This document shows positions 3,754 to 26,806 of a DNA stretch of 34,175 nt, one piece after another (position 1 is the stretch's first letter; each line of letters starts with the position of its first letter). Location: NCBI GenBank assembly GCA_003517845.1, contig DOZU01000239.1, positions 1-34,175 on the forward strand. The letters run 5' to 3'. Below the pieces are notes generated by a model. It saw nothing but the letters and a program-made list of their open reading frames with translations. It made no database searches and was not told the origin of the DNA. The DNA comes from Clostridiales bacterium (lineage in GTDB: Bacteria; Bacillota; Sulfobacillia; UBA995). The translations under genes and the position numbers were made by a program.

Positions 3754-3849
3754 TTTTCCAGGGCACCTCCCCGTTCCAGCCGAACCAACCCCCGGAAAGC
3801 AGGCCGCACGAAGCTCGCGGCCGTGCCTTCCGGAGGCTTCGCGCAGGAT

Positions 3850-6337: not shown

Positions 6338-6792
6338 CTAATCGCCCCCCAGGGGCCGCAGAGCCGGAGGCCCCGGCGGACAACAGCCGCGAGGGATCCG
6401 CGGCAACACAACACACAACAGGGAAGGGAAAGAGTTCGCGTGTGAAATTGGACGGCCGTCCAGCCCGCCCCTTCTAAGCTGAAGGAGCGAGCTAGACGGC
6501 GGGCCTTTGCCTTTCTTACTCGAGCGCGCAGCGAGACTGTTCCTGCGGGCACGTGCCGCAGGAGTTCAAGAAACTGGTGCGCCGGGACGACTATTGCTCC
6601 CGGCACGGATACGACCGCGGGGACGGACAGTTCCATCCAGGTCTCGTAGTCGGTCCTCGCCAACCGGAGCGTCCCTTCGCTTGCTTCCAGCAGGACACCC
6701 GCCAGAACGGGCCCCCCGCCACGCGGGGAGACGATCCGGCAGACAGTCTTCAGTGCCTGCAGCAGCCCCGGCTGGGGCATGATAAGTTGCAC
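6334..6792 (-). CDS. DNA polymerase III beta-clamp N-terminal-domain-like protein (single domain, 152 aa)
   Basis: GTG 6792 lies behind AAGGAGG. LLQALKTVCRIVSPRGGGPVLAGVLLEASEGTLRLARTDYETWMELSVPAVVSVPGAIVVPAHQFLELLRHVPAG aligns by eye with DnaN domain I (PILGNLLL..GTLSLTGTDLE...VPARKF..I.R.LP). Only about one domain is present. The C-terminal ~40 aa are low-quality and overlie hairpin-rich sequence. Confidence 0.5.
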   Translation of the reverse strand: MQLIMPQPGLLQALKTVCRIVSPRGGGPVLAGVLLEASEGTLRLARTDYETWMELSVPAVVSVPGAIVVPAHQFLELLRHVPAGTVSLRARVRKAKARRLARSFSLEGAGWTAVQFHTRTLSLPCCVLCCRGSLAAVVRRGLRLCGPWGAIR

Positions 6793-6843
6793 CGCTGCTC
6801 AGCCTCCTTCGGGCTGAAGCCACAGGCCCGCGCGGGGCGGGCC

Positions 6844-6892
6844 GGACAAAAGTAACGGCCGGGGGAGAACCTGCAGAGCAGGTCTCCCCCGG
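6844..6892 (-). terminator. Terminator-like hairpin plus U-rich tail after the exonuclease gene
   Basis: RNA sense CCGGGGGAGACCUGC-UCU-GCAGGUUCUCCCCCGG (15 bp, one bulge), followed by CCGUUACUUUUGUCC. Begins 6 nt after the stop at 6898. Confidence 0.45.
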
Positions 6893-6897
6893 AAGGG

Positions 6898-7947: not shown

Positions 7948-8016
7948 TTCGGTCACCCCCTACGAAGGGACAACACCGCCGGGGCCCGTGAAACATTCCC
8001 GGGCCCCGGCGAGAAC

Positions 8017-8382
8017 TCAGAAAGGCATCCCGTCGTCGCCATCCTCCCCGCCCACGTCCGGGACCCGGACGTGGGCGAGTTCTTCGAGCATGACGCCCGG
8101 GACTTCCGTCCAGCCCGACCCCGAAGCGTCGCGCTGGCGGACGGTGGTGAGCGACCCGGACACGAAGACCGTGTCGCCCTCTTGGAGTCCCGTACCAGCG
8201 CACTTTTCCGCGCGCTGGTAAAACGCCACGGCGGGCAGCCGAGGCGCCTTGCCACGGGCGCCAGGCGCCGGCGCGACCTCGAGGATCGCCCGGAACACGG
8301 GCATGGGGTCGCGGCCATCGCGAGCGACGGTCTGGGACTCGGGCGGAGCGGCAACTTTGGCCCAGCCCACGATCTTTAACAT
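8017..8382 (-). CDS. ssb: Single-stranded DNA-binding protein (possible independent product from an internal start)
   Basis: ATG 8382 is preceded by GAAGGAGG at 7-8 nt, inside the primase frame. OB-like body (MLKIVGWAKV...AVAFYQRAEKCAGTGLQEGDTVFVSGSL). Acidic C-terminal tip GGEDGDDGMPF resembles the canonical SSB DDDIPF. Confidence 0.65.
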   Translation of the reverse strand: MLKIVGWAKVAAPPESQTVARDGRDPMPVFRAILEVAPAPGARGKAPRLPAVAFYQRAEKCAGTGLQEGDTVFVSGSLTTVRQRDASGSGWTEVPGVMLEELAHVRVPDVGGEDGDDGMPF

Positions 8383-9405
8383 GGCGCAATCCTCCTTCAG
8401 GCGCACCCTCCAGGCGAAGGGCGCCAAAACCGCCGGACGGCCGCCGGAGCGCAAGAGGTCGTCAAGACCTTTGCCGCTATCGAGCGGCCAGTCGGCCACC
8501 GAGACATCAAGTCCCCGGAGTTCAAGCTCCCCAACCAGCCCCAAGGCGCACGCGCGCACCTGCGGGTTGGTCTGGAGGTCGGCGTCAAAGGCTACGACTA
8601 CGTAACGCCGGGGACGCTCGGCCACGGCCTGCAGCACCTGGTGCATACAGGTCGTAACGCCGGGGACGGCAATCACGGACACGCCGAGCCGCCAGGCGGC
8701 GTAATCGGCTTTGAGGGGGCCTTCGGTGATCCAGAGGGTCCCATCAAGGCCAGAGCCCGCCGGACAGGCCCAGTGCAGCCGCGCGGCAGCGCCGGCGCCG
8801 CCTTGACGGCGGCTTGACAGCCAGAGGTACCGGCTGCCACCGGCCTTGGGATTGTCCAGCCGGACCTGCAGGCCGCAGATGCGGCCGGCCTCGTCCCGTA
8901 CGGGGACCAAAAGGCCCGGCGGACCAACTACGGTCCAGCCGCCGCGGCGCAGGGCCAGGCCCGGCACGCGGCTTGCCTGGCCTTGGCCGACCGCTTGAGC
9001 GGCGGCCCGGCCGGCATCCTCCCGCAGCAGATCGGAACTCGCGGGCAGGCTCCGGTACAGGCCGTGCTCGACGAGGTCGGAACTGAAATCGCGCGCGTCG
9101 ATCAGGTGGGCGCGGTGGTGCCCCGAAAGTACCAGCCGGGCGAGCATGGCCCGGTAAGCCCGATCAAGGGCTTCCGGGGGGAGGGGCCGGGGCTTGCCTT
9201 TGTCGGCGGGCCCCGACAAGGACCGCATGATCGGAGCCGAGAGCGCCGTCTCGATCAGGCGACCGGCGCGGCCGCACCGAAAGCAGTGCCAGAGCCGGCG
9301 CTCCCGGTTTACATACAGATGCCGGCGGCGGTCGCCGCAGTGCGGGCAGTTCGCCCGGCACTCGCCGCCACCGGCAGGTCTCAGGTCGAGTTCGGCCGGG
9401 TTCAC
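8017..9405 (-). CDS. DNA primase (Zn-ribbon + TOPRIM) continuing in frame, without a stop, into an SSB domain
   Basis: GTG 9405 overlaps the upstream stop (GTGA). Zn-ribbon CPHCGDRRRHLYVNRERRLWHCFRCG. TOPRIM LWITEGPLKAD...VVVAFDADLQ. GKGLDDLL motif. The frame stays open through ...RLKEDCAMLKIVGW... to the SSB tail DDGMPF*. Confidence 0.8.
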   Translation of the reverse strand: MNPAELDLRPAGGGECRANCPHCGDRRRHLYVNRERRLWHCFRCGRAGRLIETALSAPIMRSLSGPADKGKPRPLPPEALDRAYRAMLARLVLSGHHRAHLIDARDFSSDLVEHGLYRSLPASSDLLREDAGRAAAQAVGQGQASRVPGLALRRGGWTVVGPPGLLVPVRDEAGRICGLQVRLDNPKAGGSRYLWLSSRRQGGAGAAARLHWACPAGSGLDGTLWITEGPLKADYAAWRLGVSVIAVPGVTTCMHQVLQAVAERPRRYVVVAFDADLQTNPQVRACALGLVGELELRGLDVSVADWPLDSGKGLDDLLRSGGRPAVLAPFAWRVRLKEDCAMLKIVGWAKVAAPPESQTVARDGRDPMPVFRAILEVAPAPGARGKAPRLPAVAFYQRAEKCAGTGLQEGDTVFVSGSLTTVRQRDASGSGWTEVPGVMLEELAHVRVPDVGGEDGDDGMPF

Positions 9406-10532
9406 TGGCCGTTGACGGGGACAACCTCCGTCACGGCCAGATGGCCGGTCCGGGCGGTCAGGAGACCGCGGGCGGACACCCGCGCGCCTTTCTCGAGCGC
9501 AAGGATCTGCGCTCGAACAGCGTCGTCGCCCAGGCGACTCCACAGCACGGCCCGCTCGCCGGCACCCAAGACGCCGTCTGCCGCATCAACCGCGCAGACG
9601 GGGACTCGGGCGGTCTTGCCGCGGGAGTCCGCCCGCTCTTCGGGGGCAGCTACGACGGCAAAGGTCCCCGCAAACACACGCGGGGGCGGGAGCTGGTCAG
9701 CCCCGGCACCGGTCTTTTCCGGGACCGGGACCGCGGTCGGGTCCGGGGCAGGAAGGGCCTCCGGCTGCGGAGCGGCAAGTTCTGTAGCCCTCTTGGCGGG
9801 CGCCGAGCGCCGGGCCGGCTTTTCGGCCAGCTCGGAAGGCGGGGGAGTCGTCCCCGCGCCCACGCTCGCGCCGTCGCCGTCGACGAACGTGAGTTCTTCC
9901 ACGCTCGTCAACCCCAGCGCGTACGCGAGCCGTATTGCACGGTTCGCGGCGCGGGTACGCGCCATCGCCCGCACGTCCTTCCATGTCGGGCGTTTCAGCC
10001 CGACATCATCAAACGAGGCTTCGCCGAACTCGACGAAGCCCCCGCAAGTGGGGGACTTCTTGAGTTCGGCGCGCCAGCAGGACCATCCGGTCCCGGGCTG
10101 CACCCGGGGCCGGAAGACGTTGCCTTCCTGCGCCCACTGGATGCGCCCTTGCGCATCCAGCAAGTACTCGGGGAGGCCCTCCTGATGGAGGGCCAAATGG
10201 ATTCCGTGGGCCTGGCGGTCTTCCGCCAGGCGCCGCAGGCCCCCGGAGGAAACATAAGGCTTTCCTCCGAGGACCAACAGGTCGCCGAGGAAGGGGTCCA
10301 GGCCATACGCCACAGCCGCGTAGGCCAGGTGCCTCTGGTCCTCCGGCGACAGGTCCTTGGGCCAGAGGGACATCCGGGCCCCGCGCTCCAAAAGCTCGCG
10401 GAGCTGGGACTCCGGCACCAACGGTTCTTTGTTGGGGGCGGGGGCAGGCCGAACAGCCACAGCTCGCACCTCCCGGCGGCGGCCAAGGCCGCCACGAAAC
10501 ACAGCCGCGGCTTGTGATCCGCGGCGAGACAA
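9402..10532 (-). CDS. RecT/Bet-like single-strand annealing protein with a C-terminal OB-fold-like extension
   Basis: YGLDPFLGDLLVLGGKPYVSSGGLRRLA and AMARTRAANRAIRLAY resemble phage RecT/Bet recombinases. The last ~110 aa (FAGTFAVVAAPEE...VSARGLLTARTGHLAVTEVVPV) look like a separate beta-rich domain. The start is uncertain: TTG 10532 behind GGAGGGAGG, or an internal GTG behind GGGAGGTG. Confidence 0.6.
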   Translation of the reverse strand: MSRRGSQAAAVFRGGLGRRREVRAVAVRPAPAPNKEPLVPESQLRELLERGARMSLWPKDLSPEDQRHLAYAAVAYGLDPFLGDLLVLGGKPYVSSGGLRRLAEDRQAHGIHLALHQEGLPEYLLDAQGRIQWAQEGNVFRPRVQPGTGWSCWRAELKKSPTCGGFVEFGEASFDDVGLKRPTWKDVRAMARTRAANRAIRLAYALGLTSVEELTFVDGDGASVGAGTTPPPSELAEKPARRSAPAKRATELAAPQPEALPAPDPTAVPVPEKTGAGADQLPPPRVFAGTFAVVAAPEERADSRGKTARVPVCAVDAADGVLGAGERAVLWSRLGDDAVRAQILALEKGARVSARGLLTARTGHLAVTEVVPVNGQ

Positions 10533-10545
10533 GACACGAAACCTC

Positions 10546-10704
10546 CCTCCCGCGCCCCTGAGGGGCGCTTGATATTGCCCCTCGGGAAAAGGCGCGGGAG
10601 CACCGCGCGGGTTTTCCGGGGGGCCCTGTTGGAAGCTGACACAGGACCGGGATAAAGACCCCCGGAAACCCGCGCGCCAGCATACAACGGCTTATGGCAC
10701 GCGG
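10546..10704 (-). promoter_or_regulatory. Conserved structured 5' leader / regulatory RNA element, copy A (upstream of the replication-recombination operon)
   Basis: About 96% identical by eye to 19471..19628, in the same orientation. RNA sense contains a ~17-bp outer helix GCGCGGGUUUCCGGGGG / CCCCCGGAAAACCCGCGC, an inner CCUGU...ACAGG hairpin, and a 3' helix CUCCCGCGCC / GGCGCGGGAG that includes the SD. Confidence 0.55.
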
Positions 10705-10733
10705 AGAAAAGGGGACCCCGGCAGGGGTCCCCC
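10704..10733 (-). terminator. Intrinsic terminator
   Basis: RNA sense GGGGACCCC-UGCC-GGGGUCCCC followed by UUUUCUCC. Lies 27 nt after the stop at 10760. Confidence 0.75.
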
Positions 10734-10759
10734 GCACTTCAATCGTACGTACTGCGGCC

Positions 10760-10996
10760 TTACGCTCTAAGCAGGTACGATGCGGATGCGAGCGCTGGAG
10801 GCGCATCGCTACTCTGCTCGTACACCCCCAGGGCCTTGCGCTCTAGATGGGCGGTATCCGCCCACGCAGGCCCAGCGTAGAGGTATTCGGAGAGGTTCGC
10901 GGTCTCCTCCGCGTAAGTTCTAAACCCCGACGGGGAGAACGCGAAAAAGACGCGGCCGCCTTTACGCTCGACGAACTTATGCAGCAGTTGCTGCAC
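10760..10996 (-). CDS. Hypothetical protein (78 aa)
   Basis: GTG 10996 lies 8 nt behind GGGAGG. Composition is ordinary (VQQLLHKFVERKGGRVFFAFSPSGFRTYAEETANLSEYLYAG...). Bracketed by two terminators. Confidence 0.5.
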   Translation of the reverse strand: MQQLLHKFVERKGGRVFFAFSPSGFRTYAEETANLSEYLYAGPAWADTAHLERKALGVYEQSSDAPPALASASYLLRA

Positions 10997-11013
10997 AGAA
11001 CTCGCCTCCCTTC

Positions 11014-11055
11014 AAGATATAAGGCCCGCCCAAAGTTGGGCGGGCCTTATATCTT
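11014..11055 (-). terminator. Strong, potentially bidirectional intrinsic terminator
   Basis: Perfect 18-bp inverted repeat AAGATATAAGGCCCGCCC / GGGCGGGCCTTATATCTT with a 6-nt loop. GC-rich stem top and A/U-rich base give a U-rich tail in either orientation. The hairpin's 3'-most base (11055, plus-strand coordinates) is the last base of the stop codon 11055-11057 of the upstream gene. Confidence 0.8.
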
Positions 11056-11441
11056 CAGGACACATGACGCCGCCGGCGCGCGGTGTCGCGGACGGCCGCA
11101 AGGTCGAGAATCTCTGCGACCTCGAAGCCGCCGCCTTCGGCGGGCCGCAGGCGGAGGCACGAAGGAAAATACCCGGCCCGCCCGTGGACCTCAGCGAGTA
11201 CCGCGGCGGCGACAGCGCTCAACGAGGGCGGGTTGAGGAGAAACAGGTTCTGCTGCCAGTCGGCCGGCGTGAAGCCGACGGCATCGACCAGATCGACCAC
11301 CTGAGCCGTGAGCGGCTGCTGGTGGTCGATCTGGCAGGACACGCCAATGATCTTCTTCAGTGGGCGCTGGAGAAGATCGGACACCCGCGCTTGCTGCGCG
11401 GGGGTCAAGGGGTGGGCAAAATTGATTACGATTGCTTGCAC
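11055..11441 (-). CDS. Hypothetical protein (128 aa)
   Basis: Lies within ORF 11055..11543. Start moved to GTG 11441 behind GAGGAG. Product VQAIVINFAHPLTPAQQARVSDLLQRPLKKIIGVSCQIDHQQPL... has normal composition. No family recognised with confidence. Confidence 0.6.
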   Translation of the reverse strand: MQAIVINFAHPLTPAQQARVSDLLQRPLKKIIGVSCQIDHQQPLTAQVVDLVDAVGFTPADWQQNLFLLNPPSLSAVAAAVLAEVHGRAGYFPSCLRLRPAEGGGFEVAEILDLAAVRDTARRRRHVS

Positions 11442-12223
11442 TTGGGCCTCTCCTCGCTTCCTCGTTCCTTCGGACAACAGGGTTCGCAGAGCGGGGGGCT
11501 CTGGACCCGGAAACACGCCTCGCCGCGGCCGCGGTAGGCGCACCCGTAGATTTCGGCGATCTTCAGGATCGCCCGGGCGAACCGGAGAAGACCCTCGCCA
11601 TACAGGCCTTCTCGAAGGGGCAGGGCGAGCTGGCTTTCGCGAAGCTCAAGCCCGGCCGCATGAGCCGCGGTGAGCGCGTCGATGACGCGCTGAGAACGAC
11701 TCTCGCGAGGGAGGCGGCCTTCCAGGTCGGCATCGAAGGCCCGCATGAGGGTGTGGCCCTCGTCGGAGAGGGCCCACCGGTCCTCTTCGCGACGAAGGAC
11801 TATCACCAGGTGGTCTCCGTCGTCAAACATGAAGGGCGTCAGCACCCGGTAACGCGCCGCGCCTTCCGCGACGAGAGCGACCTCGGGACACGCGCGACAG
11901 AAATCCGCGGTGAGGGCGCTGACGTGGTCTTCCCTGGGCAGGAGCCCCGCCGCGCAGAAGGCCGCGACCCTCGGGTCGTCGTCGTGGTCACCGCGGGTCC
12001 AGGCCTCGAGCAGCGGCTCGCCTATGGCGTCCGCCGACCAGGCGGGATGCACGACGAACCTCACGTAATCCCACGGAAGAAGGCTCCGCGGGACTTGGAG
12101 AAGCCGGCGCAGATTGCGGGCGGCTTCTTCGCCTGCCTCGCCCGCGAGTTCCCGCGCGCGAACTTGCTGCTCGGGGGTGAGTTCAGCGTACGGGACGCTG
12201 AGCAATCGACTCCCGCAGTCCAT
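11426..12223 (-). CDS. Hypothetical protein, paralog of 12571..13344 (possibly DUF1828-like)
   Basis: ATG 12223 lies behind GGGGGAGGAAAG. Shares GAARYRVLTPF..DGDHLVIVLRREEDRWALSDEGHTL and LPLREGLYGEGLLRFARAILKIAEIYG with the neighbouring gene. Confidence 0.7.
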   Translation of the reverse strand: MDCGSRLLSVPYAELTPEQQVRARELAGEAGEEAARNLRRLLQVPRSLLPWDYVRFVVHPAWSADAIGEPLLEAWTRGDHDDDPRVAAFCAAGLLPREDHVSALTADFCRACPEVALVAEGAARYRVLTPFMFDDGDHLVIVLRREEDRWALSDEGHTLMRAFDADLEGRLPRESRSQRVIDALTAAHAAGLELRESQLALPLREGLYGEGLLRFARAILKIAEIYGCAYRGRGEACFRVQSPPLCEPCCPKERGSEERPKCKQS

Positions 12224-12381
12224 CTTTCCTCCCCCTTTGCCGGTCAGGCTCCGGAAAGACGAGCCTGACCGAGACAACGCCGCCCCGTACACGCGAGCGC
12301 GGGGCGCAGTGGACAAGCCAACGAAAAGACGAGGGCAGAGGCAAGGCCGCGCAAGCGACCGTTGCCTTTGATCGAACGGCC

Positions 12382-12531
12382 TCATTCGCGGAGCCGGCAG
12401 CGAGCCAGCTCGGCGGCCCACCAGCTAAGCGCCCAGCCGATATAGGCCAGGCACGCGCGCAGGGGACACCGCCGGCGGAGGAGGCCGACCCGCGGGCAAC
12501 TCACACAAGGACTTTCGCGCCAGGTCGGCAC
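12382..12531 (-). CDS. Possible 49-aa Cys-rich mini-protein
   Basis: GTG 12531 lies 8 nt behind GGAAGGAGG. Product VPTWRESPCVSCPRVGLLRRRCPLRACLAYIGWALSWWAAELARCRLRE*. Codons mostly end in G/C. Below the ORF-track size cutoff. Confidence 0.35.
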   Translation of the reverse strand: MPTWRESPCVSCPRVGLLRRRCPLRACLAYIGWALSWWAAELARCRLRE

Positions 12532-12570
12532 GGGAGTTTCCTCCTTCCCTCCTGGGGCCCCGGCCCGCCC

Positions 12571-13344
12571 TCAACCCGGGCAGGACTCCTCGCCCTCGCA
12601 CTCGCAGTGGCGGGGGCGGGGGGAGTCCGCCAGGTCGTCGCGGTGGACGGGTGTGCGGCAGACGGTACATAGGGCGTACTGCGCCGCACAGCGCCAGCAA
12701 ACAGCGCGGACGACAGCGCCGGCGTCGTCGGAGTGCCACCAGAACAGACTGCGGGGTCGAAGCGCCCCGCAGTGATCGCACCGTCGGAATTGCCGGACGC
12801 ACTCTCCGCAGATTTGCACTTCGAAGATGGTGCTCCCCGACCAAAATGGCCCGGGACCTGCGGTCGAGGTGCCACATCGGCCGCAGGTGACACGAGTAGA
12901 AGCGTCGACGGCTCGGAGAGAGCGGGATTCGCACGGGTCGCCCGGCAAGCCCTTCGGCTGCCGCGGACTTCCGCCGAAGCTCTCGGCTATCTGCAGCAGC
13001 GCCTCGGCGAAGCACAGAAGGCTTTCCCCGTATCTGCCGTCCCGGATCGGGAGGACGAACTCCGTGCCCCGCAGCTCAATCGAGGCGGCCTCGGCCAGGG
13101 TGAATGCATAGATGAGGCGCTCCGGGAGGACGCGGGTCTCCCGGTCGAAAAGGCCCGCGAGGGTACGGCCTTCGTCGGAAAGATACCATCCGCCGGTCTC
13201 CTCGCCATGGAGGACAATCGGCGGGAAATCGCCGCCGTCTGCCGAAGAAGCGCGGACGCGGTAACGCCCGGCTCCTTCCTCGGTGAGGCCCACGCCGCCA
13301 CACACCTTATAGAACTCGAAGGCGACGGTCTCAATCGCCGGCAT
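12571..13344 (-). CDS. Hypothetical protein: N-terminal domain paralogous to 11426..12223, fused to a C-terminal multi-CxxC zinc-ribbon module
   Basis: ATG 13344 lies behind AGAGGAG. Motifs GAGRYRVRASS..GGDFPPIVLHGEETGGWYLSDEGRTL and LPIRDGRYGESLLCFAEALLQIAESFG. C-terminal CGRC...CGEC...CDHCG...CWRC...CTVC. Confidence 0.7.
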   Translation of the reverse strand: MPAIETVAFEFYKVCGGVGLTEEGAGRYRVRASSADGGDFPPIVLHGEETGGWYLSDEGRTLAGLFDRETRVLPERLIYAFTLAEAASIELRGTEFVLPIRDGRYGESLLCFAEALLQIAESFGGSPRQPKGLPGDPCESRSLRAVDASTRVTCGRCGTSTAGPGPFWSGSTIFEVQICGECVRQFRRCDHCGALRPRSLFWWHSDDAGAVVRAVCWRCAAQYALCTVCRTPVHRDDLADSPRPRHCECEGEESCPG

Positions 13345-13822
13345 CGGCTATGCTCCTCTCTGCCGGTCTAAGGCCGTACCGGCCCAGAAGCCAGGGCGGC
13401 AGGCTCGCAAACGGCAGCACCACCCGGGTCACGCCCGGGAACCAGTAAAACGGGCAGGCGTGGGCGCCTGGGGCGAAGTCGGCCGGGTCCTCTGTGTGAA
13501 GGACGACGGACCGCCGGGCGGCAAGCGCAGCGCCGAACTCCGTGTGGGTGCCGCGAAGACCGGGCAGCAACACAACCACCAGGTCGGCACTCACGGCGGC
13601 GTTCAGTTCCCGGGCGGCAATCCAGCCCGGGCTGCGCGCAACCGCCTCCGAATGGAGGCAGCAGGTCGTCGCAGTCCAGTCATAGGTGTGCCGCCAGCCC
13701 TGGTCGGTCAGGGCGCGGGCCAGCTCGGCAACGCGGGGGGCGTTGCCGTACCCGGACGCGATGTAAAAGCTTGGTCCGGGGGGGAGGCTTCTCGGGGTCG
13801 ATGGCGCCGCAATCATGGGCAA
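13331..13822 (-). CDS. Nucleoside 2-deoxyribosyltransferase-like (NDT/Rcl-fold) protein
   Basis: TTG 13822 lies 6 nt behind GGAGGTG. FYIASGYGN...ELNAAVSADLVVVLLPGLRGTHTEFGAALAARRSVVL fits the flavodoxin-like NDT pattern, with the conserved Glu in G-T-x-T-E-F-G. Confidence 0.6.
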   Translation of the reverse strand: MPMIAAPSTPRSLPPGPSFYIASGYGNAPRVAELARALTDQGWRHTYDWTATTCCLHSEAVARSPGWIAARELNAAVSADLVVVLLPGLRGTHTEFGAALAARRSVVLHTEDPADFAPGAHACPFYWFPGVTRVVLPFASLPPWLLGRYGLRPAERSIADAGD

Positions 13823-13900
13823 ACACTACACCTCCTGCTGTCTTGCGCGAAAACACCGCCTCGCGCGACGACGAAAGCCGGCGGGGCGCCAAGGGCCTGA

Positions 13901-13947
13901 CCAACAGAAAGACGAAGGTAGAAGCAGGGCCGCCGAAGCGGTCCTGC
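13901..13947 (-). terminator. Terminator-like hairpin (UUCG loop) plus U-rich tail
   Basis: RNA sense GCAGGACCGC-UUCG-GCGGCCCUGC followed by UUCUACCUUCGUCUUUCUGUUGG. Lies in the 160-nt spacer after the stop at 13983. Confidence 0.45.
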
Positions 13948-13982
13948 CCCACGCGAGCGCCGGTCGGGCAATAATGCCCGAA

Positions 13983-14312
13983 CTAGTCCTCAGCCTCCGC
14001 GTCCGGCCGGCAGCCGGGATGGTAATGGGCGCCGGCGACCTGCTCAGCCTCATCGCGGCGCAGGAGCGTCTCGCAACCCGCCGCGCAGTCGCAATACTGG
14101 CTATAGCAGGCCCCGCAGAGGGCATGGGGCTCATCATCTGACTCCCACGCGGCATCGCGAAGGAGGAGCCTCTTTCCGCAATCTTCGCACTCGCCGTATC
14201 GGTCAGCCCAACAGTCTTCACAAATTGGGCCTCCCTGTAAATTGAACCGCGGTTCGAGAGATGTGGCGGGTCTGCCACAGTCCGCGCAGCGAACTGCTGC
14301 CGGCATCTCCAC
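13983..14312 (-). CDS. Multi-CxxC zinc-ribbon protein (109 aa), homologous to the C-terminal module of 12571..13344
   Basis: GTG 14312 lies 6 nt behind AAGGAG. ICEDCWADRYGECEDCGKRLL...SDDEPHALCGACYSQYCDCAAGC aligns with ICGECVRQFRRCDHCGALRP...SDDAGAVVRAVCWRCAAQYALCTVC. Confidence 0.65.
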   Translation of the reverse strand: MEMPAAVRCADCGRPATSLEPRFNLQGGPICEDCWADRYGECEDCGKRLLLRDAAWESDDEPHALCGACYSQYCDCAAGCETLLRRDEAEQVAGAHYHPGCRPDAEAED

Positions 14313-14429
14313 TGTGATCTCCTTTCTGCCGGGACTTGCTGCTCCCAGCGGAACCGGGGCGGGCTCTAAGGCCTCCCCGCCGAGAACTCCGCCCCGAACG
14401 GAAGCGGGGCGCATCGGACAAACCAACGC

Positions 14430-14485
14430 ATAAAGAAGGGAAAGGCAGAGGCAAGGCCGCCGGGTTGCACGGCCTTGCCTCTGCC
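14430..14485 (-). terminator. Intrinsic terminator-like element inside the operon
   Basis: Perfect 16-bp stem GGCAGAGGCAAGGCCG / CGGCCUUGCCUCUGCC with a 10-nt loop, followed by UUUCCCUUCUUUAU. Starts 11 nt after the VWA gene stop at 14496. Confidence 0.65.
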
Positions 14486-14495
14486 CCGGGGAAGC

Positions 14496-16028
14496 CTAAC
14501 GGGACCCCGCCAAAGCCTCCAGCATTTCTTCAAGAGGCTGCTGGTCGGATCCCGTGACCTGCCAGGTCCGGTCGGCGAAGGCGGCCGTGCCGCCAGGATG
14601 GTCGCCCACCCCGAAGGCAAATACGGACACGCCAGACGCGGCTTTCCAGGACTGAAAGTCCTCGAGAAAGTCGTCCGGCAAGGCGCATTCGCCGTCGGTC
14701 ACAAACAGGATGTCCGCCCGCCGGAAGGCGGGCGAGTCGGAGATTATTTGCCGCGCCCGGGCGAGCGGCGCGGCGAAGCTGGTGCCGCCGCGCCAGCCGA
14801 AGGACATGAAGTCCTCCAGCCGGGCGGGGTCGACCCCCCGGCGCCAGAAGTACTCGCGCGGGAGGTTGGCGTCGGCGCCGAACAGCAGGGACCACCAGGC
14901 CCGCCGCTCGCGGCCACATAACATGGCCATGCCCAGGCCGAGTGCCTTGGCCCAGGCAAGGCGCGACAGGCCGGCGGGACCGGGCTCGATCATGGACCCG
15001 CTGGTGTCAATGCAGACCACCACGGGGCCTTGGCCGAGCGTCTGCCGCTCTCTCACCGCATACTGGGTGAGGGAGCCCTCGGCGTAGCGCCGGCGGAACT
15101 CGCGCCGCAGCACCGGATGGCGCAGGAGCACGAGTTCGGCGGGAAGCACCCGGGCCAGGTCGCGGCCAAGTTCCAGGGAGTAGATCTCCCCGGAGCTTGA
15201 ATGCAGGATCTGCCGCCGTTTGGTCAGGCCCAGCCGGAAGATCCGGCCGGCCTGCCGCAAAGCGGCGCGCAGATCCTGGTCCTTGACCAGGTGCGCAGCC
15301 AAGGCGAGCCCTGCGCGGGCCGCCTCGGGATCGTGCCCGCCGGGGCCAGGGGACAGACCCCAGCCAGCAACCAACCGGGCGTCCTCGGCCGCGTCGGAGA
15401 CGGCCTGGCGAAGCCCCGCCCTTACGCCCCGGCCAGGCTGGCGCAGCGCTTGCTGCAGGGCCTGAACCGCGGCGCTATCGGCGGCAGCAGAGACTGCAGC
15501 GGCAGCGGCGGCCTCTTGCTCGGCCGCCTGGTACTGCTGCTGCAGGTCTTGCTGGGCGCCGTCGGGCAACTGCTCGTTCAGAAGGCCGGCCAAGCTATCG
15601 GCGTGACCGGCGGTCTGCTCAGCGGTCTCGGCGGCCTGGGCGGCCGCTTGCGAGGCGTGCTTGACTTCGTCCGGCAGCGCGTCGAGGACGCGCGGCAGGA
15701 CGCCGATAGCGGCCATGGCGGCCGCCCATTCGTCCAGTGAGGCAGCTGCGCGCAGCTCGGCCCATTCCGGGTAGCGGCGCAGCTCGGCGAGCAGCGACGC
15801 TACCGCGGCAAGGCCGGCTGCGGGCTGGGCGACGTCTTCCGGCATGAACTTGAAGCAATCGGCCCAGGTGTCCTGGGCCAAGGTGCCGCCGGAAGGGTCG
15901 CCCAGGGCCGCCTGAGCGCGGTCGACTACCGAGGCCAACTCGGGGCTGGCCTCGGTGGTATCCCGAAAGCAGCGACGGTCAAACCCGTCCGTCGCTACGA
16001 CGCCTGAGGGGAAGATGCGCCGCCTCAC
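14496..16028 (-). CDS. ViaA-like von Willebrand factor A (VWA) domain protein
   Basis: GTG 16028 overlaps the AAA+ gene stop (GTGA). C-terminal VWA domain with MIDAS VVVCIDTSGSM. Long Ala/Gln-rich helical N-terminal part. Gene order AAA+ then VWA matches ravA-viaA. Confidence 0.85.
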   Translation of the reverse strand: MRRRIFPSGVVATDGFDRRCFRDTTEASPELASVVDRAQAALGDPSGGTLAQDTWADCFKFMPEDVAQPAAGLAAVASLLAELRRYPEWAELRAAASLDEWAAAMAAIGVLPRVLDALPDEVKHASQAAAQAAETAEQTAGHADSLAGLLNEQLPDGAQQDLQQQYQAAEQEAAAAAAVSAAADSAAVQALQQALRQPGRGVRAGLRQAVSDAAEDARLVAGWGLSPGPGGHDPEAARAGLALAAHLVKDQDLRAALRQAGRIFRLGLTKRRQILHSSSGEIYSLELGRDLARVLPAELVLLRHPVLRREFRRRYAEGSLTQYAVRERQTLGQGPVVVCIDTSGSMIEPGPAGLSRLAWAKALGLGMAMLCGRERRAWWSLLFGADANLPREYFWRRGVDPARLEDFMSFGWRGGTSFAAPLARARQIISDSPAFRRADILFVTDGECALPDDFLEDFQSWKAASGVSVFAFGVGDHPGGTAAFADRTWQVTGSDQQPLEEMLEALAGSR

Positions 16029-17200
16029 GACGGCTTCACCCCCAAGACGTCGGCGAGCAGCCGGCGCAGGAGTTCGTCAACGCGCCCCTGGGAGGCGGCG
16101 CGCTGGGGCTCGAGCGAGCCGGGCAATTGCAGCCCGACCAGGCTCCCCTGGAGGCGGCGCAGCTTGGCGTGTGCCTCGACGGCGAGCTTGGAGGCTTTCG
16201 TGCGCGCCTCGGCGTCGCCGGAGACGGCCGCGGCGTGGGCCTCCAAGGCGGGAATGGCAGCCTCTTCGGCCTCTTCGGTCGCCTGGAGCAGCCGCTCCCG
16301 CAAGGGATCGGCTACCCGCCGGACCACGCCGACTACGGCGGGGCGCTGCTCGGGGGTATCCCAGAGAGCGTCGACGAGGACGTCGCCGTCGCGCTCAAGG
16401 TCGATGGCCGGGGCGCCTGCAAGCCAGGCGGCGGCCCGCAGGATCTCGACCGACCACCGCCAGCGGCGGTCGGAGGGAATGATGCCCTCCTGGCGCAGCG
16501 CCCGGCGAAGATCGGCCAGGGACGCCGCTACGGCCGGAGGGACCTCGACCTGCGCGGACTCGGCGCGGGCCTGGGCGAGGTCGCCCAGGCTCAAGCACAC
16601 CGGGTCCGGCAAGTCCCCTCCGGGATCGAGAGGGCGGCTGAGCAGCCGGGAGAAACTTGCGTCCTCCCGGATGTAGCCGACTGTGTGCCGGAGGGGCACC
16701 CGGTCGACCAGCGCCGCGAGTTCGCGGGCCTCGTCGCCCTCGGGCATCTCTGTCGAGGCCAGAAACGCCGTCCACAGCGGGACGGCGTCAAGCCGGCCGT
16801 CGTTTGCGAACAGCCGCTCGTTGAGGATCGCGAGCAGGCTGTTCAGGACGGCCGGGCTGGCCTTGGACCACTCGTCGATGAAGGCCAGGTCCGCCTCGGG
16901 GAGACGGCCGGCGGTGACGCGTTCGTAGCGGCCTTGCTCCAGAGCCGGCAAGCTCACCGGCCCGAAAAGCTCTTCGGGCACGGTGAATCGGCCTAACACG
17001 ACCTGATATAGCCGGGCGCCGCCGATGGCGGCGGTTACGGCCCGAGCAAGCTCGGACTTGGCCGTGCCCGGCGGGCCCAGCAAGAGCAAGTGCTGGCGAG
17101 ATATGAGCGCCAGCACCACGCCACGCAGCACGCCATCCCGCTCATAGAAGCGGGCGGCGAGCTGGCGGACAAGCGCGTCGAATTTTGGTCTAAGGTCCAT
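16025..17200 (-). CDS. MoxR-class AAA+ ATPase, RavA-like
   Basis: ATG 17200 lies behind GGAGGTG. Walker A LLLLGPPGTAKS. ...RFTVPEELFGPVSLPALEQGRYERVTAGRLPEADLAFIDEWSKASPAVLNSLLAILNER tracks the E. coli RavA core almost motif for motif, as recalled from memory. Confidence 0.9.
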   Translation of the reverse strand: MDLRPKFDALVRQLAARFYERDGVLRGVVLALISRQHLLLLGPPGTAKSELARAVTAAIGGARLYQVVLGRFTVPEELFGPVSLPALEQGRYERVTAGRLPEADLAFIDEWSKASPAVLNSLLAILNERLFANDGRLDAVPLWTAFLASTEMPEGDEARELAALVDRVPLRHTVGYIREDASFSRLLSRPLDPGGDLPDPVCLSLGDLAQARAESAQVEVPPAVAASLADLRRALRQEGIIPSDRRWRWSVEILRAAAWLAGAPAIDLERDGDVLVDALWDTPEQRPAVVGVVRRVADPLRERLLQATEEAEEAAIPALEAHAAAVSGDAEARTKASKLAVEAHAKLRRLQGSLVGLQLPGSLEPQRAASQGRVDELLRRLLADVLGVKPS

Positions 17201-17302
17201 CAAGCACCTCCGGGCCGCCCGGGAGGGGCGGCCGCGCGGCCAACAGACCCGGCGCAAAGAGGACGGAGCCTCCGCGCCGGGCCGCTTTGCGACCGGGGCC
17301 GG

Positions 17303-18244
17303 TCAAGCGCCGGCAGCATCCAGCGCCTGGACGACGGCGTCCCGCACGAGGCGGGCACCTTGGGCGAGATCGAAGAGATCCTGAGAGAGGACCTCTTCGT
17401 AGCTCGCGATCAGGGCCAGCACGGCCTGGGCCTCGCCGACGAGCGTGCTCAGGGCACGCTTGCCGGGCTCTTCGGCCAGGCCGGCCCGAAGGCCGGCGAG
17501 CAGGCGGGCCACGTCGTCCGCGACGGCGTCGCGGATGGTGGCCCGGGCGCCTTTCGTGTCCACCACCGGAAAGGAGGCCCAGGAAGCTTTCAAGGCTTCC
17601 TCTTGGGCCAGGGCACCGAGCCGCGCGAGTTCGTCGGCGTGCTCGGCGGGAACGAAATACACCCCCCCGGACACGCGGACGAGCACGGAGTGCAGCTCCA
17701 AGAGATACCGGCGGAACAGGCTCCGCAGAGCCTCCGCCTGATACAACCGGCGGAAGCGAGCGTAAAGCTCCTCCGCTTGCAGGCAAGCGGCCTGCACGGT
17801 CTCCCAGCCTTCGGAGTCGTAAACCCGAAGGCTCGTTGCGACCGCCGGGCCGGACGCCTGGTGGATCAGGTCGGCCGCCGGGGAGTACTCCAGGCGGCGG
17901 TTCCGGGAGTCGACAACCTCCCGGACGACCTGCCGGTAGCAGTCCCCGGCGGCGTCGACTCCTACTTCCCGCACCAGCAGGTTCATGTACCTGCCGCCGG
18001 GAAGGGCGATCCGCGACCGCTGTACGGCCGCGGTAGCCCGCCGGAAAGCATCGACGGGCTCGATGGCGCGAGGCAGAAGCGCCTCGCGGAGGGCGTGCCG
18101 GGCGAACCCGCCCATGAGGTCGTCCCGGCTTATCTCGACCTGACCTGGAACGGTGAACCAGGTCAGGTGGCCCAAGACCTCCTGGGGAGCGGCGGACGGA
18201 AAAACAGCGGCTTTTCCGTCCAGGGGCTTCGGAAGGGCGTTCAT
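17303..18244 (-). CDS. Hypothetical protein (313 aa) preceding the AAA+/VWA pair
   Basis: Lies within ORF 17303..18313. Start moved to ATG 18244 behind AAAGGAGG. Balanced composition (MNALPKPLDGKAAVFPSAAPQEVLGHLTWFTVPGQVEISRDDLMGGF...VYFVPAEHADEL...). No family recognised. Confidence 0.75.
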   Translation of the reverse strand: MNALPKPLDGKAAVFPSAAPQEVLGHLTWFTVPGQVEISRDDLMGGFARHALREALLPRAIEPVDAFRRATAAVQRSRIALPGGRYMNLLVREVGVDAAGDCYRQVVREVVDSRNRRLEYSPAADLIHQASGPAVATSLRVYDSEGWETVQAACLQAEELYARFRRLYQAEALRSLFRRYLLELHSVLVRVSGGVYFVPAEHADELARLGALAQEEALKASWASFPVVDTKGARATIRDAVADDVARLLAGLRAGLAEEPGKRALSTLVGEAQAVLALIASYEEVLSQDLFDLAQGARLVRDAVVQALDAAGA

Positions 18245-18365
18245 GCACGCCCCTCCTTTCATGGGACAAACAGCGGCCGCCGCCCAAGAACAGACGGCGG
18301 CCGCACATCGCAACCGGCGCAGAGGGAAATACCAGCCTTGCGCGCCGGCCTCTCCCCCGTCCAGT

Positions 18366-18620
18366 TCAGGCTCCCCGGGGGAGCCTGTACGCCACGACTG
18401 GATACTGCCCCGGGGGGGTCAGTACCCGGAGGTCTTCGTAGCCGGCACTGCCAAGTTCGGCGGCGCGGTCCAACGCGCGGTCCAACGCGCCCGGATCGGG
18501 CGGGACCTGGCGGACGCGCCGGCGGAGCCGGATGGGCTCCGGCACGGCGCGGAGTGCCGCGGGGACATTGAGCATCTCGCGGATGGTCCATCCGCGAGAG
18601 GGGGCGAACACAGCAGACAT
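18366..18620 (-). CDS. Hypothetical protein (84 aa)
   Basis: ATG 18620 lies 8 nt behind AGGAGG. Product MSAVFAPSRGWTIREMLNVPAALRAVPEPIRL... Confidence 0.55.
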   Translation of the reverse strand: MSAVFAPSRGWTIREMLNVPAALRAVPEPIRLRRRVRQVPPDPGALDRALDRAAELGSAGYEDLRVLTPPGQYPVVAYRLPRGA

Positions 18621-18702
18621 TTCGCTGACCTCCTGAAGGGGCGAGGACGAGGCCCCGCCCCTTGATTTTTTCTTGCCGGGCCCGGGGCCGGGCCCGGGGT
18701 TA

Positions 18703-18810
18703 CTACTGGTCGAACATCCAGGTTCGCACGAAGATTACGAGCCTGGGTCCGAGAACACACATTAGTGCTGGGCCGAAAACGCCCAGCACCAGCGCGGCGA
18801 TCCCTTCCAT
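18703..18810 (-). CDS. Possible 35-aa hydrophobic membrane peptide
   Basis: ATG 18810 lies behind AAGGGGAG. Product MEGIAALVLGVFGPALMCVLGPRLVIFVRTWMFDQ*. Below the ORF-track cutoff. Confidence 0.3.
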   Translation of the reverse strand: MEGIAALVLGVFGPALMCVLGPRLVIFVRTWMFDQ

Positions 18811-18922
18811 TTTGACGGCTCCCCTTTCCGGGGAGACCGGCGGGACTGGACAGACCCGCCCTGCCTCCCCTGTCAACTCCCGGCGCAGGACGCGCCGGAT
18901 GCAGAGGCGGAGACAGGACGGG

Positions 18923-19462
18923 TCAGTAGGTCGCCGCCGGAGTGCAGACGGCGGGACCGCCCCGGGCCCGGAGCCGGCACGCTTCGAGGCGTGCCGACCC
19001 GGGATAGAGAGTGAGGTTGCCCATCGCCCGGGCGGCGACGGGCTTTATGTCGTCGGCGTCGCCGGCGGGGGAACCGCCGACGGGCTGCCATCCGGGTCCG
19101 ACCACCCGGAACTCCCGGAAGAGTTCCAGGCGGGTGCCCGGGGGGAACAGCCCGGCGTACCAGCCGCCCCGCCGGCACACCCAAAGGGTGCCGGCCGGGG
19201 TCTCAAGGACACGACCCTTGGCGCAGATGAAAAGCGCCTGGGGCCAAGTTCCGGCCGGCGCCGGGGCCAGCCGGAACCGCACGGGGCCGCCGGGCTCGGC
19301 TCGCCAGCCCCGGAGGAAGAACACTCCGGGGTGGGCCGGCGCGGAGCCCTCAAAGAGCAGCTCCACGTTGGCCCGGGTGAACCGGAGCCGGCCGCGGGGA
19401 CGCTCGACGATGTCCGGCCGGGCGAAGACCCGGTCGGACACCTCGACCGCAAAATCGGACAT
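18923..19462 (-). CDS. Hypothetical protein (179 aa), first gene after leader copy B
   Basis: ATG 19462 lies 6 nt behind GGGAGGTG, which is the 3' end of the leader. Product MSDFAVEVSDRVFARPDIVERPRGRLRFTRANVELLFEG... looks beta-rich. No family recognised. Confidence 0.65.
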   Translation of the reverse strand: MSDFAVEVSDRVFARPDIVERPRGRLRFTRANVELLFEGSAPAHPGVFFLRGWRAEPGGPVRFRLAPAPAGTWPQALFICAKGRVLETPAGTLWVCRRGGWYAGLFPPGTRLELFREFRVVGPGWQPVGGSPAGDADDIKPVAARAMGNLTLYPGSARLEACRLRARGGPAVCTPAATY

Positions 19463-19470
19463 CAAACCCA

Positions 19471-19628
19471 CCTCCCGCGCCCCTCAGGGGCGCTTGATAT
19501 TGCCCCTCGGGAAAAGGCGCGGGAGCACCGCGCGGGTTTTCCGGGGGGCCCTGTTGGAAGCTGACACAGGACCGGGTTAGAACCCCCGGAAACCCGCGCG
19601 CCAGCATACAACGGCTTATGGCACGCGG
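19471..19628 (-). promoter_or_regulatory. Conserved structured 5' leader / regulatory RNA element, copy B (upstream of the accessory operon)
   Basis: Second copy of 10546..10704. It differs only by one base in the CCCCU-N-AGGGG apex and by a 6-7-nt patch (GGGUUCUAACCC vs GGGUCUUUAUCCC) between the outer and inner helices. Confidence 0.55.
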
Positions 19629-19639
19629 GAAAGAACGCA

Positions 19640-19723
19640 AAATGCTCAAAAGGCTTGACCAAGAAAGGGCCGCCGCAAGCCCCCGGCTTCAGACACAGGG
19701 ATAAGGCGGCCTTTTCTTGGTCA
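19640..19723 (-). terminator. Long hairpin plus U-rich tail ending the upstream operon
   Basis: 19-nt arms TGACCAAGAAAAGGCCGCC / GGCGGCCCTTTCTTGGTCA (one mismatch) around a 30-nt insert, followed in RNA sense by AGCCUUUUGAGCAUUUUGCGUUCUUUCC. Confidence 0.5.
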
Positions 19724-19786
19724 GCCCGAGACCACACAGGAGGAGGAGAGCGGTCCGGGGCCGAAGGGCCCGCTCCGGCAAGGCCG

Positions 19787-20551
19787 TCAGCTTGAAGCGA
19801 GGCGGACGGGCTCAAGGCCGCGGCTGACGGGCCGCCAGAACTCGGCCCGGCCGTGAAATAGCGGGCCGTCCCAGGTCAGGCGGATCTCCATGCCGGATAC
19901 GCGGACCACACGGCCGAGTTCTTCGGCTTGTTCGCGGGAGCCGGCTACCAGGACGAGCACCGAGGCGATATCGGCGGAAAGACGCGCCGCGTCACGCGCC
20001 CAGTCGAGTTCGCCAGGCCACAGCCGGGCGACGAGGACGCCGAAAGGGGCGCCGGCGGAAAAGATGGCGGTCAGGCCGCCGCCGGGCTCGATCTGCACGG
20101 GAAACGGACCCCAAAGACGCCATAGCAGCATATAAAGCTGTGAGGAGGCGGCCAGACGCAAGGCGCGCAAGGGCTCCCAATCCTCGACAACGGGAGGGCC
20201 GCCCATGAGGCGGCGGCCGCACGGGCCTTCGACGTAAAGCGAGGGGATGCGGCTTGAGAGAAAGTCCAGCCGATCGGCTAAACCGCCCCGGCACATGCGC
20301 CGGAGGAGGTCGCGGACGGAGTGCACGCCTACCCCCGCCAGCTCGCCTAGCTGAGCACCGGACATGCACCGGAACCGGCGCAGGAGGCTTAATGCGGCTG
20401 CATCCGCTTCGGACACCAAAGGGCCGGGAGGCGCGAAGGCGGCCGCAGACGTGTTGGAAATTACGCGCCGAAGATGGATGCAACCGGCGGGATCGCCGCT
20501 CCAAGGGCCCCGGCCGGAAGCACGCCTCAGCGCTTCAACAGGGGTTCCCAC
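19787..20551 (-). CDS. Winged-helix protein, replication-relaxation-family-like
   Basis: GTG 20551 lies 6 nt behind GGAGGT. The N-terminal segment AALSLLRRFRCMSGAQLGELAGVGVHSVRDLLRRMCRGGLADRLDF looks like a wHTH of the Replic_Relax type. The remainder is unassigned. Confidence 0.5.
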   Translation of the reverse strand: MGTPVEALRRASGRGPWSGDPAGCIHLRRVISNTSAAAFAPPGPLVSEADAAALSLLRRFRCMSGAQLGELAGVGVHSVRDLLRRMCRGGLADRLDFLSSRIPSLYVEGPCGRRLMGGPPVVEDWEPLRALRLAASSQLYMLLWRLWGPFPVQIEPGGGLTAIFSAGAPFGVLVARLWPGELDWARDAARLSADIASVLVLVAGSREQAEELGRVVRVSGMEIRLTWDGPLFHGRAEFWRPVSRGLEPVRLASS

Positions 20552-21540: not shown

Positions 21541-21561
21541 GAGGATCGTCCTCCTTTTGGA

Positions 21562-21906
21562 CTAAGACACGTTCCGCCGGAGAGCGACGGGACGCTGCTG
21601 GCTGCCGGCGCAGGTCTCCAGGACGAGCGCAGGCACGGGAAGGGGTTTCCGGGGCTGAGGGCCCCGAGCACCGCGGCGGCGCGGAAACTGCCAACGGGAC
21701 GGCACGAGGGCGGGCTTCAGGATTACGGGTTCGGTAGAGACGCGGTAGACGAGGCCCGGCCAACAATCAACGAGCGAGGACACATAACGGTCCAAGTGCT
21801 CGGGATCACGATAGCCGGTGGAACAGCCGGCGAGGACTTCGACCCAGCGCAGCTCGCCGTTTACGGGCTTGAAGACGTACTGGTCGGCCCAATACACGTA
21901 AAGCAT
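21562..21906 (-). CDS. Hypothetical protein (114 aa)
   Basis: ATG 21906 lies behind AAAGGGTGA. Product MLYVYWADQYVFKPVNGELRWVEVLAGCSTGYRDPEHLDRYVSSLVDCWPGLVYRV... has normal composition in its first ~70 aa. Confidence 0.55.
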   Translation of the reverse strand: MLYVYWADQYVFKPVNGELRWVEVLAGCSTGYRDPEHLDRYVSSLVDCWPGLVYRVSTEPVILKPALVPSRWQFPRRRGARGPQPRKPLPVPALVLETCAGSQQRPVALRRNVS

Positions 21907-21912
21907 GACATG

Positions 21913-24344: not shown

Positions 24345-24548
24345 GGTGATGATGCTAGCGTCGAAGCTCATAGTAAACAGAACATGTCCGTTGGGGCGTA
24401 ATGTTGCCGCATGCGGCGAGGGCGTCCGCACCCAACACGCAGCCGGGCGTGCCCGAAGCAACTGTGCGAATTCAGCCGCCGCAGAACGTCATGTAATTGG
24501 GTACAGATCGCTCCCGACACGGTTCTCCCGGCAAGCCGAGGGTTGCCC

Positions 24549-26804: not shown

Positions 26805-26806
26805 TC

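Follow-up and report, generated by a model that had tools for sequence, protein, structure and literature searches.

The stretch of DNA analysed here (the window, 34,175 nucleotides, GC content ~68%) carries a block of minus-strand genes that spans about 3.3 to 24.3 kb. The block encodes PolA with a 3'-5' exonuclease, a rhomboid protease, a sliding-clamp remnant, a PD-(D/E)XK nuclease, a DUF3854 primase-like protein, two DUF1828-type proteins, a VWA protein, bpMoxR and DUF6744; weak sub-threshold matches to a replication-relaxation (relaxase-family) protein and to an S1-like protein were also obtained. A T4SS coupling protein gene is located at 30047-32020, and the window is thus part of a conjugative element. 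The DUF6744-MoxR-VWA trio is also present on large plasmids of Brevibacillus, Alicyclobacillus, Rubrobacter and Streptomyces, and in jumbo phages.

The element itself was found in the public DNA runs X1-X3, from groundwater and aquatic samples, and a ~94%-identical variant (X4) in a soil metagenome; no RNA run matched the sequence. A genome scan produced a sole relative, Firmicutes bacterium UBA995 (L001, extended as L088), whose VWA protein has 73% amino-acid identity. A viral scan gave none, and a metagenome scan gave bpMoxR homologs only, which at identities of 47% or less are of no use for spacer comparison. The VWA protein family and the ORF182 family are both tiny; a further VWA locus (L007, 35% identical) was rejected for comparison because its spacers are of another style. 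The comparison base consists of one close variant and one relative, so that true compensatory double changes are few.

Several features of the window lie beside the subject proper. The sliding-clamp (dnaN-like) gene at 6334-6792 (minus strand) survives as a remnant of 152 aa; in L088 a complete clamp of 340 aa follows VWA. The two sides of the remnant breakpoint (6523/6524) sit on separate contigs with different flanks in X4, and a third X4 contig carries a diverged copy of 6617-6699. The longest stem in the window, 20 bp at 6455-6500 (minus strand), also lies within this remnant. A DNA-methylase gene and a neighbouring opposite-strand ORF (24411-27601, plus strand) have a lower GC content (0.57-0.61) and are missing from the syntenic relative L088; the block is therefore probably an inserted restriction-modification island. 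A second methylase, of the Eco57I type, is found at 718-2226.

The minus-strand genes include two operons, each headed by one copy of a ~170-nt leader. Leader copy 1 (10533-10704, minus strand) ends with the SD that serves the first ORF of operon 1, and copy 2 (19458-19628, minus strand) heads the operon that contains spacers E, D, A, C and B, described below. The copies are 91-100% identical, and L001 has a 75% identical leader at 935-1110. The leader is multi-copy in the source metagenomes, with contig depths of 254 versus 36 in X1 and 115 versus 24 in X4 (about 5-7x). Several contigs of variant sequence terminate within it; the assemblies evidently break there, and more copies must exist outside the window. 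In the predicted consensus fold of the window copies (10528-10712 and 19453-19636, minus strand) and L001:935-1110, CUCCCGCGCC pairs with GGCGCGGGAG, which would sequester the SD, and a predicted small hairpin, GCGCGG-UGCU-CCGCGC, is followed by CUUUUCCC. No compensatory changes in this fold were seen among the three sequences. The 3' end of the leader thus looks like a local attenuator, an expression platform or an SD-sequestering translational switch, as far as the modelled fold can tell. A search with all families of Rfam 15, EAR among them, gave 0 matches at the gathering score over the window, and chance-level matches only at E<=5 over 3000-22000. Five matches to a leader 18-mer in viral contigs were all attributable to chance.

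Two canonical terminators mark the end of operon 2. The first, at 11014..11055, is bidirectional; A-rich and U-rich arms flank its core, a GC stem of 10 bp that carries a 4-nt loop. The second, at 10710..10733 (minus strand), lies just upstream of leader 1 and consists of GGGGGACCCC-TGCC-GGGGTCCCC followed by UUUUCUCC. Both have a stem of 10 bp, a loop of 4 nt and a tail rich in U. A further canonical terminator, AAGGGGCG..CGCCCCTT followed by GATTTTTTCTTG, is found on the plus strand at 18636-18675, just upstream of an 84-aa gene; it opposes the operon direction and may block antisense transcription. Nearby, the first gene of operon 2 is followed by an unlisted spacer of 300 nt, which contains a 35-aa hydrophobic ORF with an SD (18703-18810, minus strand; MEGIAALVLGVFGPALMCVLGPRLVIFVRTWMFDQ). 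Part of this spacer (18662-18790) is replaced in X4, and L001 has another small hydrophobic ORF at the equivalent place (about 1750-1826).

Eight spacers between minus-strand ORFs, here A to H, were singled out by the initial annotation as sharing a plan: a stop codon, a GC-rich hairpin, a U-rich run, GTTGG and/or TTGTCC, a second hairpin and the next SD. GC-rich stem-loops are indeed present in all eight, on the transcribed strand. Spacer A (14313..14495; this and all the following spacer coordinates refer to the minus strand) is located between the VWA gene and a Zn-ribbon gene, with its SD at about 14325-14319. The perfect 16-bp stem reported at 14444-14485 exists, and extends to 19 pairs with an 8-nt loop (hp1, 14487-14442); the tail UUUCCCUUCUUUAU (14441-14428), the 13-mer CGTTGGTTTGTCC (14428-14416) and hp2 (GCGCCCCGC..GGGGCGG, 14412-14389) with the tail AGTTCTC follow. 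The 3' arm of this stem (GCGGCCTTGCCTCTGCC) recurs, as had been noticed, at 12334-12350. Spacer B (12224..12381), a paralog of A upstream of a DUF1828 gene, contains hp1 (12367-12339), the 13-mer CGTTGGCTTGTCC (12323-12311), hp2 (12307-12279) and hp3 (12272-12240). Spacer C (13823..13982), a paralog of A and B, lies upstream of a deoxyribosyltransferase-like gene and contains hp0 (13981-13964), hp1 (13950-13921), GTTGG (13905-13901) and hp2 (13889-13854).

The other five spacers are distributed over both operons. Spacer D (17201..17302), between DUF6744 and bpMoxR, has hp1 at 17283-17246, GTTGG at 17244-17240, and hp2 (GGCCGCCC..GGGCGGCC, 17233-17213) adjoining the SD. Spacer E (18245..18365), upstream of DUF6744, has hp1 at 18358-18321, a 14-bp hp2 with a 4-nt loop and the tail UGUUUGUCCC at 18304-18273, and TTGTCC at 18269-18264. 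Spacer F (6793..6897), between the PD-(D/E)XK nuclease gene and the clamp remnant, has hp1 at 6892-6859, TTGTCC at 6849-6844 and hp2 at 6843-6825, with a distal U run. Spacer G (7957..8016), between the primase-like gene and the PD-(D/E)XK gene, has one hairpin (8012-7976, tail GUGUUGUCCCUU) and TTGTCC at 7973-7968. Spacer H (3754..3849), downstream of PolA, forms a long irregular hairpin of 23 pairs (3840-3782), within whose 3' side its GTTGG (3789-3785) is located. The second hairpin ahead of the SD thus holds for A to F; G has a single hairpin. An additional instance, not among the eight, occurs at 6378..6404 (minus strand): 41 nt ahead of the rhomboid gene, a GCCGCGG..GCGGC hairpin is followed by UG-UUGUCC. 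Two sites share a related hairpin, GCCGCGGATC..GCGGC, with GTGT(N)TTGT before it and TGT after it, one directly after the leader 1 SD (10504-10525, minus strand) and the other upstream of the rhomboid gene (6386-6404, minus strand).

A covariance model (R1) was built from A, B, C, their variants and the L001 ortholog. It recovered A, B, C and the L001 ortholog only (48-105 bits, E<=1e-9; B 105 bits, C 79.9 bits); its remaining matches had E>=0.02, and none was at D to H. The shared plan therefore reflects homology in A, B and C, whereas D to H have the layout alone in common. A, B and C are one paralogous cassette of ~100 nt, present in three copies in the window, with the order hp1, pyrimidine tract, GTTGG(Y)TTGTCC, hp2 (GCGCCCCGC..GGGGCGG) and GTTNTC. 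They are confined to a lineage-specific block of accessory genes, and modules occupy the points, after VWA and before DUF6744, where synteny between the window and L001/L088 breaks. In X1 and X4 contig depth stays flat across the modules, with three copies in the window, which gives no sign of a dispersed REP- or MITE-like repeat. Homology between leader and modules was not significant (5.4 bits). The conserved core of the cassette (3' arm of hp1, 13-mer and hp2) is more than a generic hairpin would need, which hints, from sequence conservation, at a sequence-specific partner.

A and B (14313-14426 and 12224-12421) have no stop codon in the frame of the downstream gene, and mechanical ORF calls run through them. 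A coding explanation for their conservation was rejected: the nucleotides common to A and B fall in a different reading frame in each, and GC3 in the A extension is about 64% (hand count) versus 80-87% in genes, so both are non-coding. The pyrimidine tract after hp1 in A and B (e.g., CCCUUCUUU or CCUCGUCUUUU) resembles an anti-SD; in the predicted minimum-energy folds of both it base-pairs with the downstream gene's SD region and encloses hp2.

The strength of folding is uneven among the spacers. The fold z-scores are -3.6 (A), -2.0 (B), -0.8 (C), -1.4 (D), -2.7 (E), -4.3 (F), -5.3 (G) and -5.1 (H), with a mean of -3.2 versus -1.8 for the coding windows of the element (Mann-Whitney P=0.02). 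Since coding windows are structured too, 25% of them having z below -2.5, the spacer excess is real but moderate, and hairpins alone are weak evidence. Perfect stems of at least 8 bp are likewise abundant in coding sequence. The longest and most stable hairpins are concentrated in the spacers, where stems are mostly about 12-20 bp.

Compared with X4, spacer A has 0 substitutions in 183 nt, where the neighbouring sequence differs by 5.9% (P=1.4e-5); its only changes are two indels, 2 nt inserted within the loop of hp1 and 1 nt lost from the pyrimidine tract. Recent recombination instead of selection could account for this perfect conservation. The other counts are 8 in B, 11 in C, 10 in D, 5 in E and 0 in F, although local divergence at F is only 2%. 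The eight substitutions in B fall in loops, in the pyrimidine tract or at G.U-compatible positions. In C, 4/4 hp1 loop bases are changed and two substitutions mend mismatches in hp1 and hp2; D retains its hairpins despite its 10 substitutions; hp2 of E is identical; and in G one change at the stem base becomes a G.U pair. Altogether, the 34 substitutions in A to E broke 0 of the main hp1 and hp2 stems, and the indels fall in loops. Predicted paired positions account for 62% of the nucleotides but for only 15 of the 34 substitutions (P=0.027); 11 of these 15 keep the pair and two mend mismatches. The segment between hp1 and hp2 of the A/B/C core is conserved in sequence in X4. On the sense strand, C-to-U outnumber G-to-A changes 14 to 1 in modules versus 68 to 37 elsewhere (P=0.02). 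This excess argues for pairing in the sense RNA, because a G:C pair may become G.U in sense RNA only. The substitution pattern thus points to purifying selection on the spacer stems as sense-strand RNA structure.

After VWA, L001 has at the equivalent position a hairpin of different sequence with a UUUUCC tail; structure was kept there and sequence was not. The L001 hp2 is conserved in sequence. Both hairpins of D are present in its ortholog (L001:4734-4850).

Terminator likeness is restricted to a few spacers. By a d'Aubenton-Carafa-type score, hp1 of A, its L001 ortholog, hp2 of E and the two canonical operon-end terminators are positive, the one at 10710..10733 being the highest; G is borderline; and for want of a proximal U tract, B, C, D, F and H score clearly negative. 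The U-rich run described for the whole set therefore applies to A (UUUCCCUUCUUU) and, weakly, to E and G, but not to the other five. A generic terminator scan found 22 sites versus 15.5+-4.7 in shuffles, i.e., no overall excess; among the eight spacers it flagged A and E only, in agreement with the score. In both lineages, a hairpin of terminator grade closes the conserved DUF6744-MoxR-VWA unit.

The short motifs fared differently from one another. TTGTCC is enriched in the window: it occurs in 5 of 8 spacers versus 0.36-0.55 expected with local composition preserved, and 5 of its 15 sense-strand occurrences are in spacer, which is 4.7% of the sequence (P=5e-4 versus coding). The family-wise P is about 0.004, or about 0.1 when the paralogs A and B are counted once, and the relative L088 shows a marginal trend (4 of its 10 occurrences being intergenic, P=0.09). 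GTTGG shows no enrichment, either in the window (54 versus 66 expected) or in L088 (P=0.95). There are two copies of the full 13-mer CGTTGGYTTGTCC, one each in A and B, and matches with up to 3 mismatches are at chance level (20 versus 19.5 expected). TTGTCC is always positioned 0-4 nt before a hairpin or SD, and in E and G it is 12-20 nt from the start codon. In X4 it changes to TTGTTC in E and to TTTTCC at 6378-6383, and GTTGG changes to GTTGC in D; the TTGTCC of G is unchanged in X4 and X5. By eye, a pattern more regular than TTGTCC/GTTGG is the SD-nearest hairpin followed by N-GUU-(N1-2)-UC(C), for example AGUUCUC in A, CGUUGUCUC in B, UGUUUUC in C, UGUUUGUCC in E, GUGUUGUCC in G and UGUUCUCC in L001. 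GU-rich runs (GUGUGUC, UGUUGG) occur in many L088 spacers.

The reading that we tentatively prefer is that the spacers carry mRNA stem-loops between cistrons which would set graded levels of expression, by terminating some transcripts and by altering the stability of transcript segments. The stem-loops would be structures of the sense mRNA transcribed from two long minus-strand operons, which belong to a conjugative element of a high-GC Firmicute, and make up a mixed set: the ~100-nt cassette in three copies (A, B, C) and five unrelated GC hairpins. The hairpin just after each stop codon would serve as a 3' barrier; those with enough U's (A, E, perhaps G) may double as leaky intrinsic terminators; and the second hairpin, just 5' of the next SD, may protect or organise the downstream segment. 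Together these effects would let expression differ in a graded way from gene to gene, owing to partial termination and to unequal stability of the segments. By analogy, the succession of hairpin, single-stranded U/G-rich linker and hairpin resembles the classic arrangement for segmental stability. For the five spacers with strong hairpins lacking a U tract, only a stability or barrier role (or one in translation) fits. Processing or stability, which had been offered as the alternative to termination, fits more of the spacers than the terminator reading does, and with two or three terminator-like spacers the set is mostly ordinary operon punctuation. While the strand-specific hairpins are a feature of the sequence, we infer termination, cleavage, stability and any effect on expression from their form and conservation.

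Processive antitermination, the reading first suggested for these operons, is unlikely, though none of the other rivals fares better. A polymerase modified by the leader, as RNA alone or with a factor, would read through terminator hairpins that halt stray transcription. The conjugative-element setting (T4SS coupling protein, DUF3854 primase, weak sub-threshold relaxase-family match) is appropriate, and there is a Gram-positive precedent for many internal terminators with a system at the operon start (PMC8191782, PMC8955417, PMC11658703). The two near-identical leaders, one per operon as for nutL/nutR and putL/putR, their 75% conservation in L001 and their multiple copies in the source genomes agree with it as well. 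The modules moreover lack a sigma-70-type promoter, so that the genes downstream of A and E need read-through. However, only 2 or 3 of the 8 hairpins have a terminator-type tail. Typical terminator stems are 7-11 bp, and in pLS20 long stems render terminators resistant to antitermination by conAn; the 13-20 bp stems found here are of that resistant length (PMC10325885). No PF17362 (ConAn1), NusG/KOW, or N- or Q-like protein was found in about 30 ORFs, including the ORF after leader 2, and a PHROG search for an antiterminator gave no match; EAR and all other Rfam RNAs likewise gave no match. The 3' end of the leader, with its predicted SD sequestration and hairpin-UUUU, is more like a local switch. 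The bolder version, in which leader and junction hairpins would form a new RNA-based antitermination system unrelated to conAn, canT, put and EAR, with the A/B/C core as a checkpoint for the leader-modified polymerase, is distinctly improbable, more so than any of the alternatives taken up next except the last.

It is slightly more doubtful than antitermination in general that the modules are terminator-restart cassettes of the moron or PeSL kind, in which hp1 ends one unit, the 13-mer region starts another, and hp2 is the 5' end of the new transcript; the cassette repeats would in addition promote gene shuffling around individually acquired accessory genes. This would account for the true paralogy of A, B and C, their lineage-specific accessory block and the position of modules at synteny breakpoints with L001/L088. 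The terminator-grade hairpin that closes the DUF6744-MoxR-VWA unit in both lineages, the conserved hp1-hp2 core in X4 and the constant placement of TTGTCC 0-4 nt before a hairpin or SD also fit. The missing piece is the promoter. There is no -35/-10 pair, TAnnnT is not common to A, B and C, and a sigma-70 scan of 19 kb gave one promoter-like site, outside the modules. In E and G, TTGTCC is just 12-20 nt from the start codon, and the motif mutates in the close variant. A sigma-54-like GG-N10-GC spacing that fits A and B was dropped because by inspection it fails in C.

That the hairpins have no dedicated function, being by-products of 68% GC or selfish REP-like palindromes with a motif arising from GU-rich composition, is improbable. 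Perfect stems of at least 8 bp are common in coding sequence, where the mean z is -1.8; GTTGG is unenriched and TTGTCC unstable in variants; and GU-rich runs of the GUGUGUC/UGUUGG type recur in many L088 spacers. On the other side, the longest and most stable hairpins are concentrated in the spacers, the substitutions spare stems and carry the sense-strand G.U signature, and A has 0 substitutions in 183 nt. The modules are also not dispersed, as judged from the flat depth and the three copies found with the covariance model.

DNA-level sites, i.e., the 13-mer or TTGTCC as a stoperator-like operator or the modules as attC-like recombination sites with a GTT core, are very improbable: the motif is asymmetric, intergenic and oriented with transcription, and modules flank small accessory genes, but the full 13-mer is present just twice, no integrase or repressor adjoins the array, and the substitution pattern indicates RNA pairing rather than DNA pairing. 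An attC-like R''/R' stem was rejected by inspection, there being no CCAAC partner 5' of hp1.

If the hairpins do grade expression, they show how replication and accessory genes are tuned within the long operons of a conjugative element from an uncultured high-GC Firmicute, and the threefold cassette at synteny breakpoints is a possible handle for gene-cassette exchange. RNA-based antitermination was recently found to be common in Gram-positive conjugative elements; if it operated here, a new class would be added to the short list of RNA-based systems. At present the locus is mostly a well-documented case of ordinary intercistronic mRNA structure.

Several known systems share parts of this organisation. 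Mycobacteriophage stoperators are 13-nt asymmetric intergenic motifs with about 20-30 near-identical copies; the 13-mer of A and B is of the same length, asymmetry, orientation with transcription and location in short intergenic regions, but it is found twice. The PeSL of T4-type phages and the lambdoid morons are regulatory cassettes that recur in intergenic regions on either side of variable accessory genes. The A/B/C cassette is likewise repeated beside accessory genes at synteny breakpoints, but it has no recognisable promoter. Lambda nutL/nutR and HK022 putL/putR are two copies of a cis element, each heading a terminator-containing operon. Here too one element is present in two copies, each at an operon head, although no boxA/boxB, put-like two-stem structure or N-like protein was identified. 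In the early mRNAs of phage T7 and of the B. subtilis phage SP82, intercistronic hairpins are processed by RNase III, and cleavage leaves protective hairpins. The present spacers resemble these sites in having long intercistronic stem-loops, some of them sharing sequence, in the polycistronic mRNA of a mobile element. They differ in that only A (19 pairs) and H (23 irregular pairs) approach the two helical turns, about 20 bp, of an RNase III site, the others having 12-15. In malE-malF and in the Rhodobacter puf operon, stabiliser hairpins or REP elements after a stop codon protect the upstream segment and grade operon expression. The hairpins described here have the same position right after the stop codon; unlike REPs, which are genome-wide families, A, B and C are local, with three copies and no extra metagenome depth.

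The closest counterparts in setting are the conjugative elements of Gram-positive bacteria, such as pLS20 with its 23 terminators and conAn (PMC8191782, PMC8955417) and Tn916 with canT processive antitermination (PMC11658703). Unlike in these, a U tract is found in A and E only (G being borderline), and the stems are 13-20 bp; unlike in conAn, there is no PF17362 protein, and the leader is unrelated in sequence and ends on an SD. Like pLS20 and Tn916, the present element is conjugative and has a Gram-positive host, its long operons have many stem-loops where genes adjoin, and a conserved non-coding element heads the operon (PMC8191782, PMC8955417, PMC11658703).
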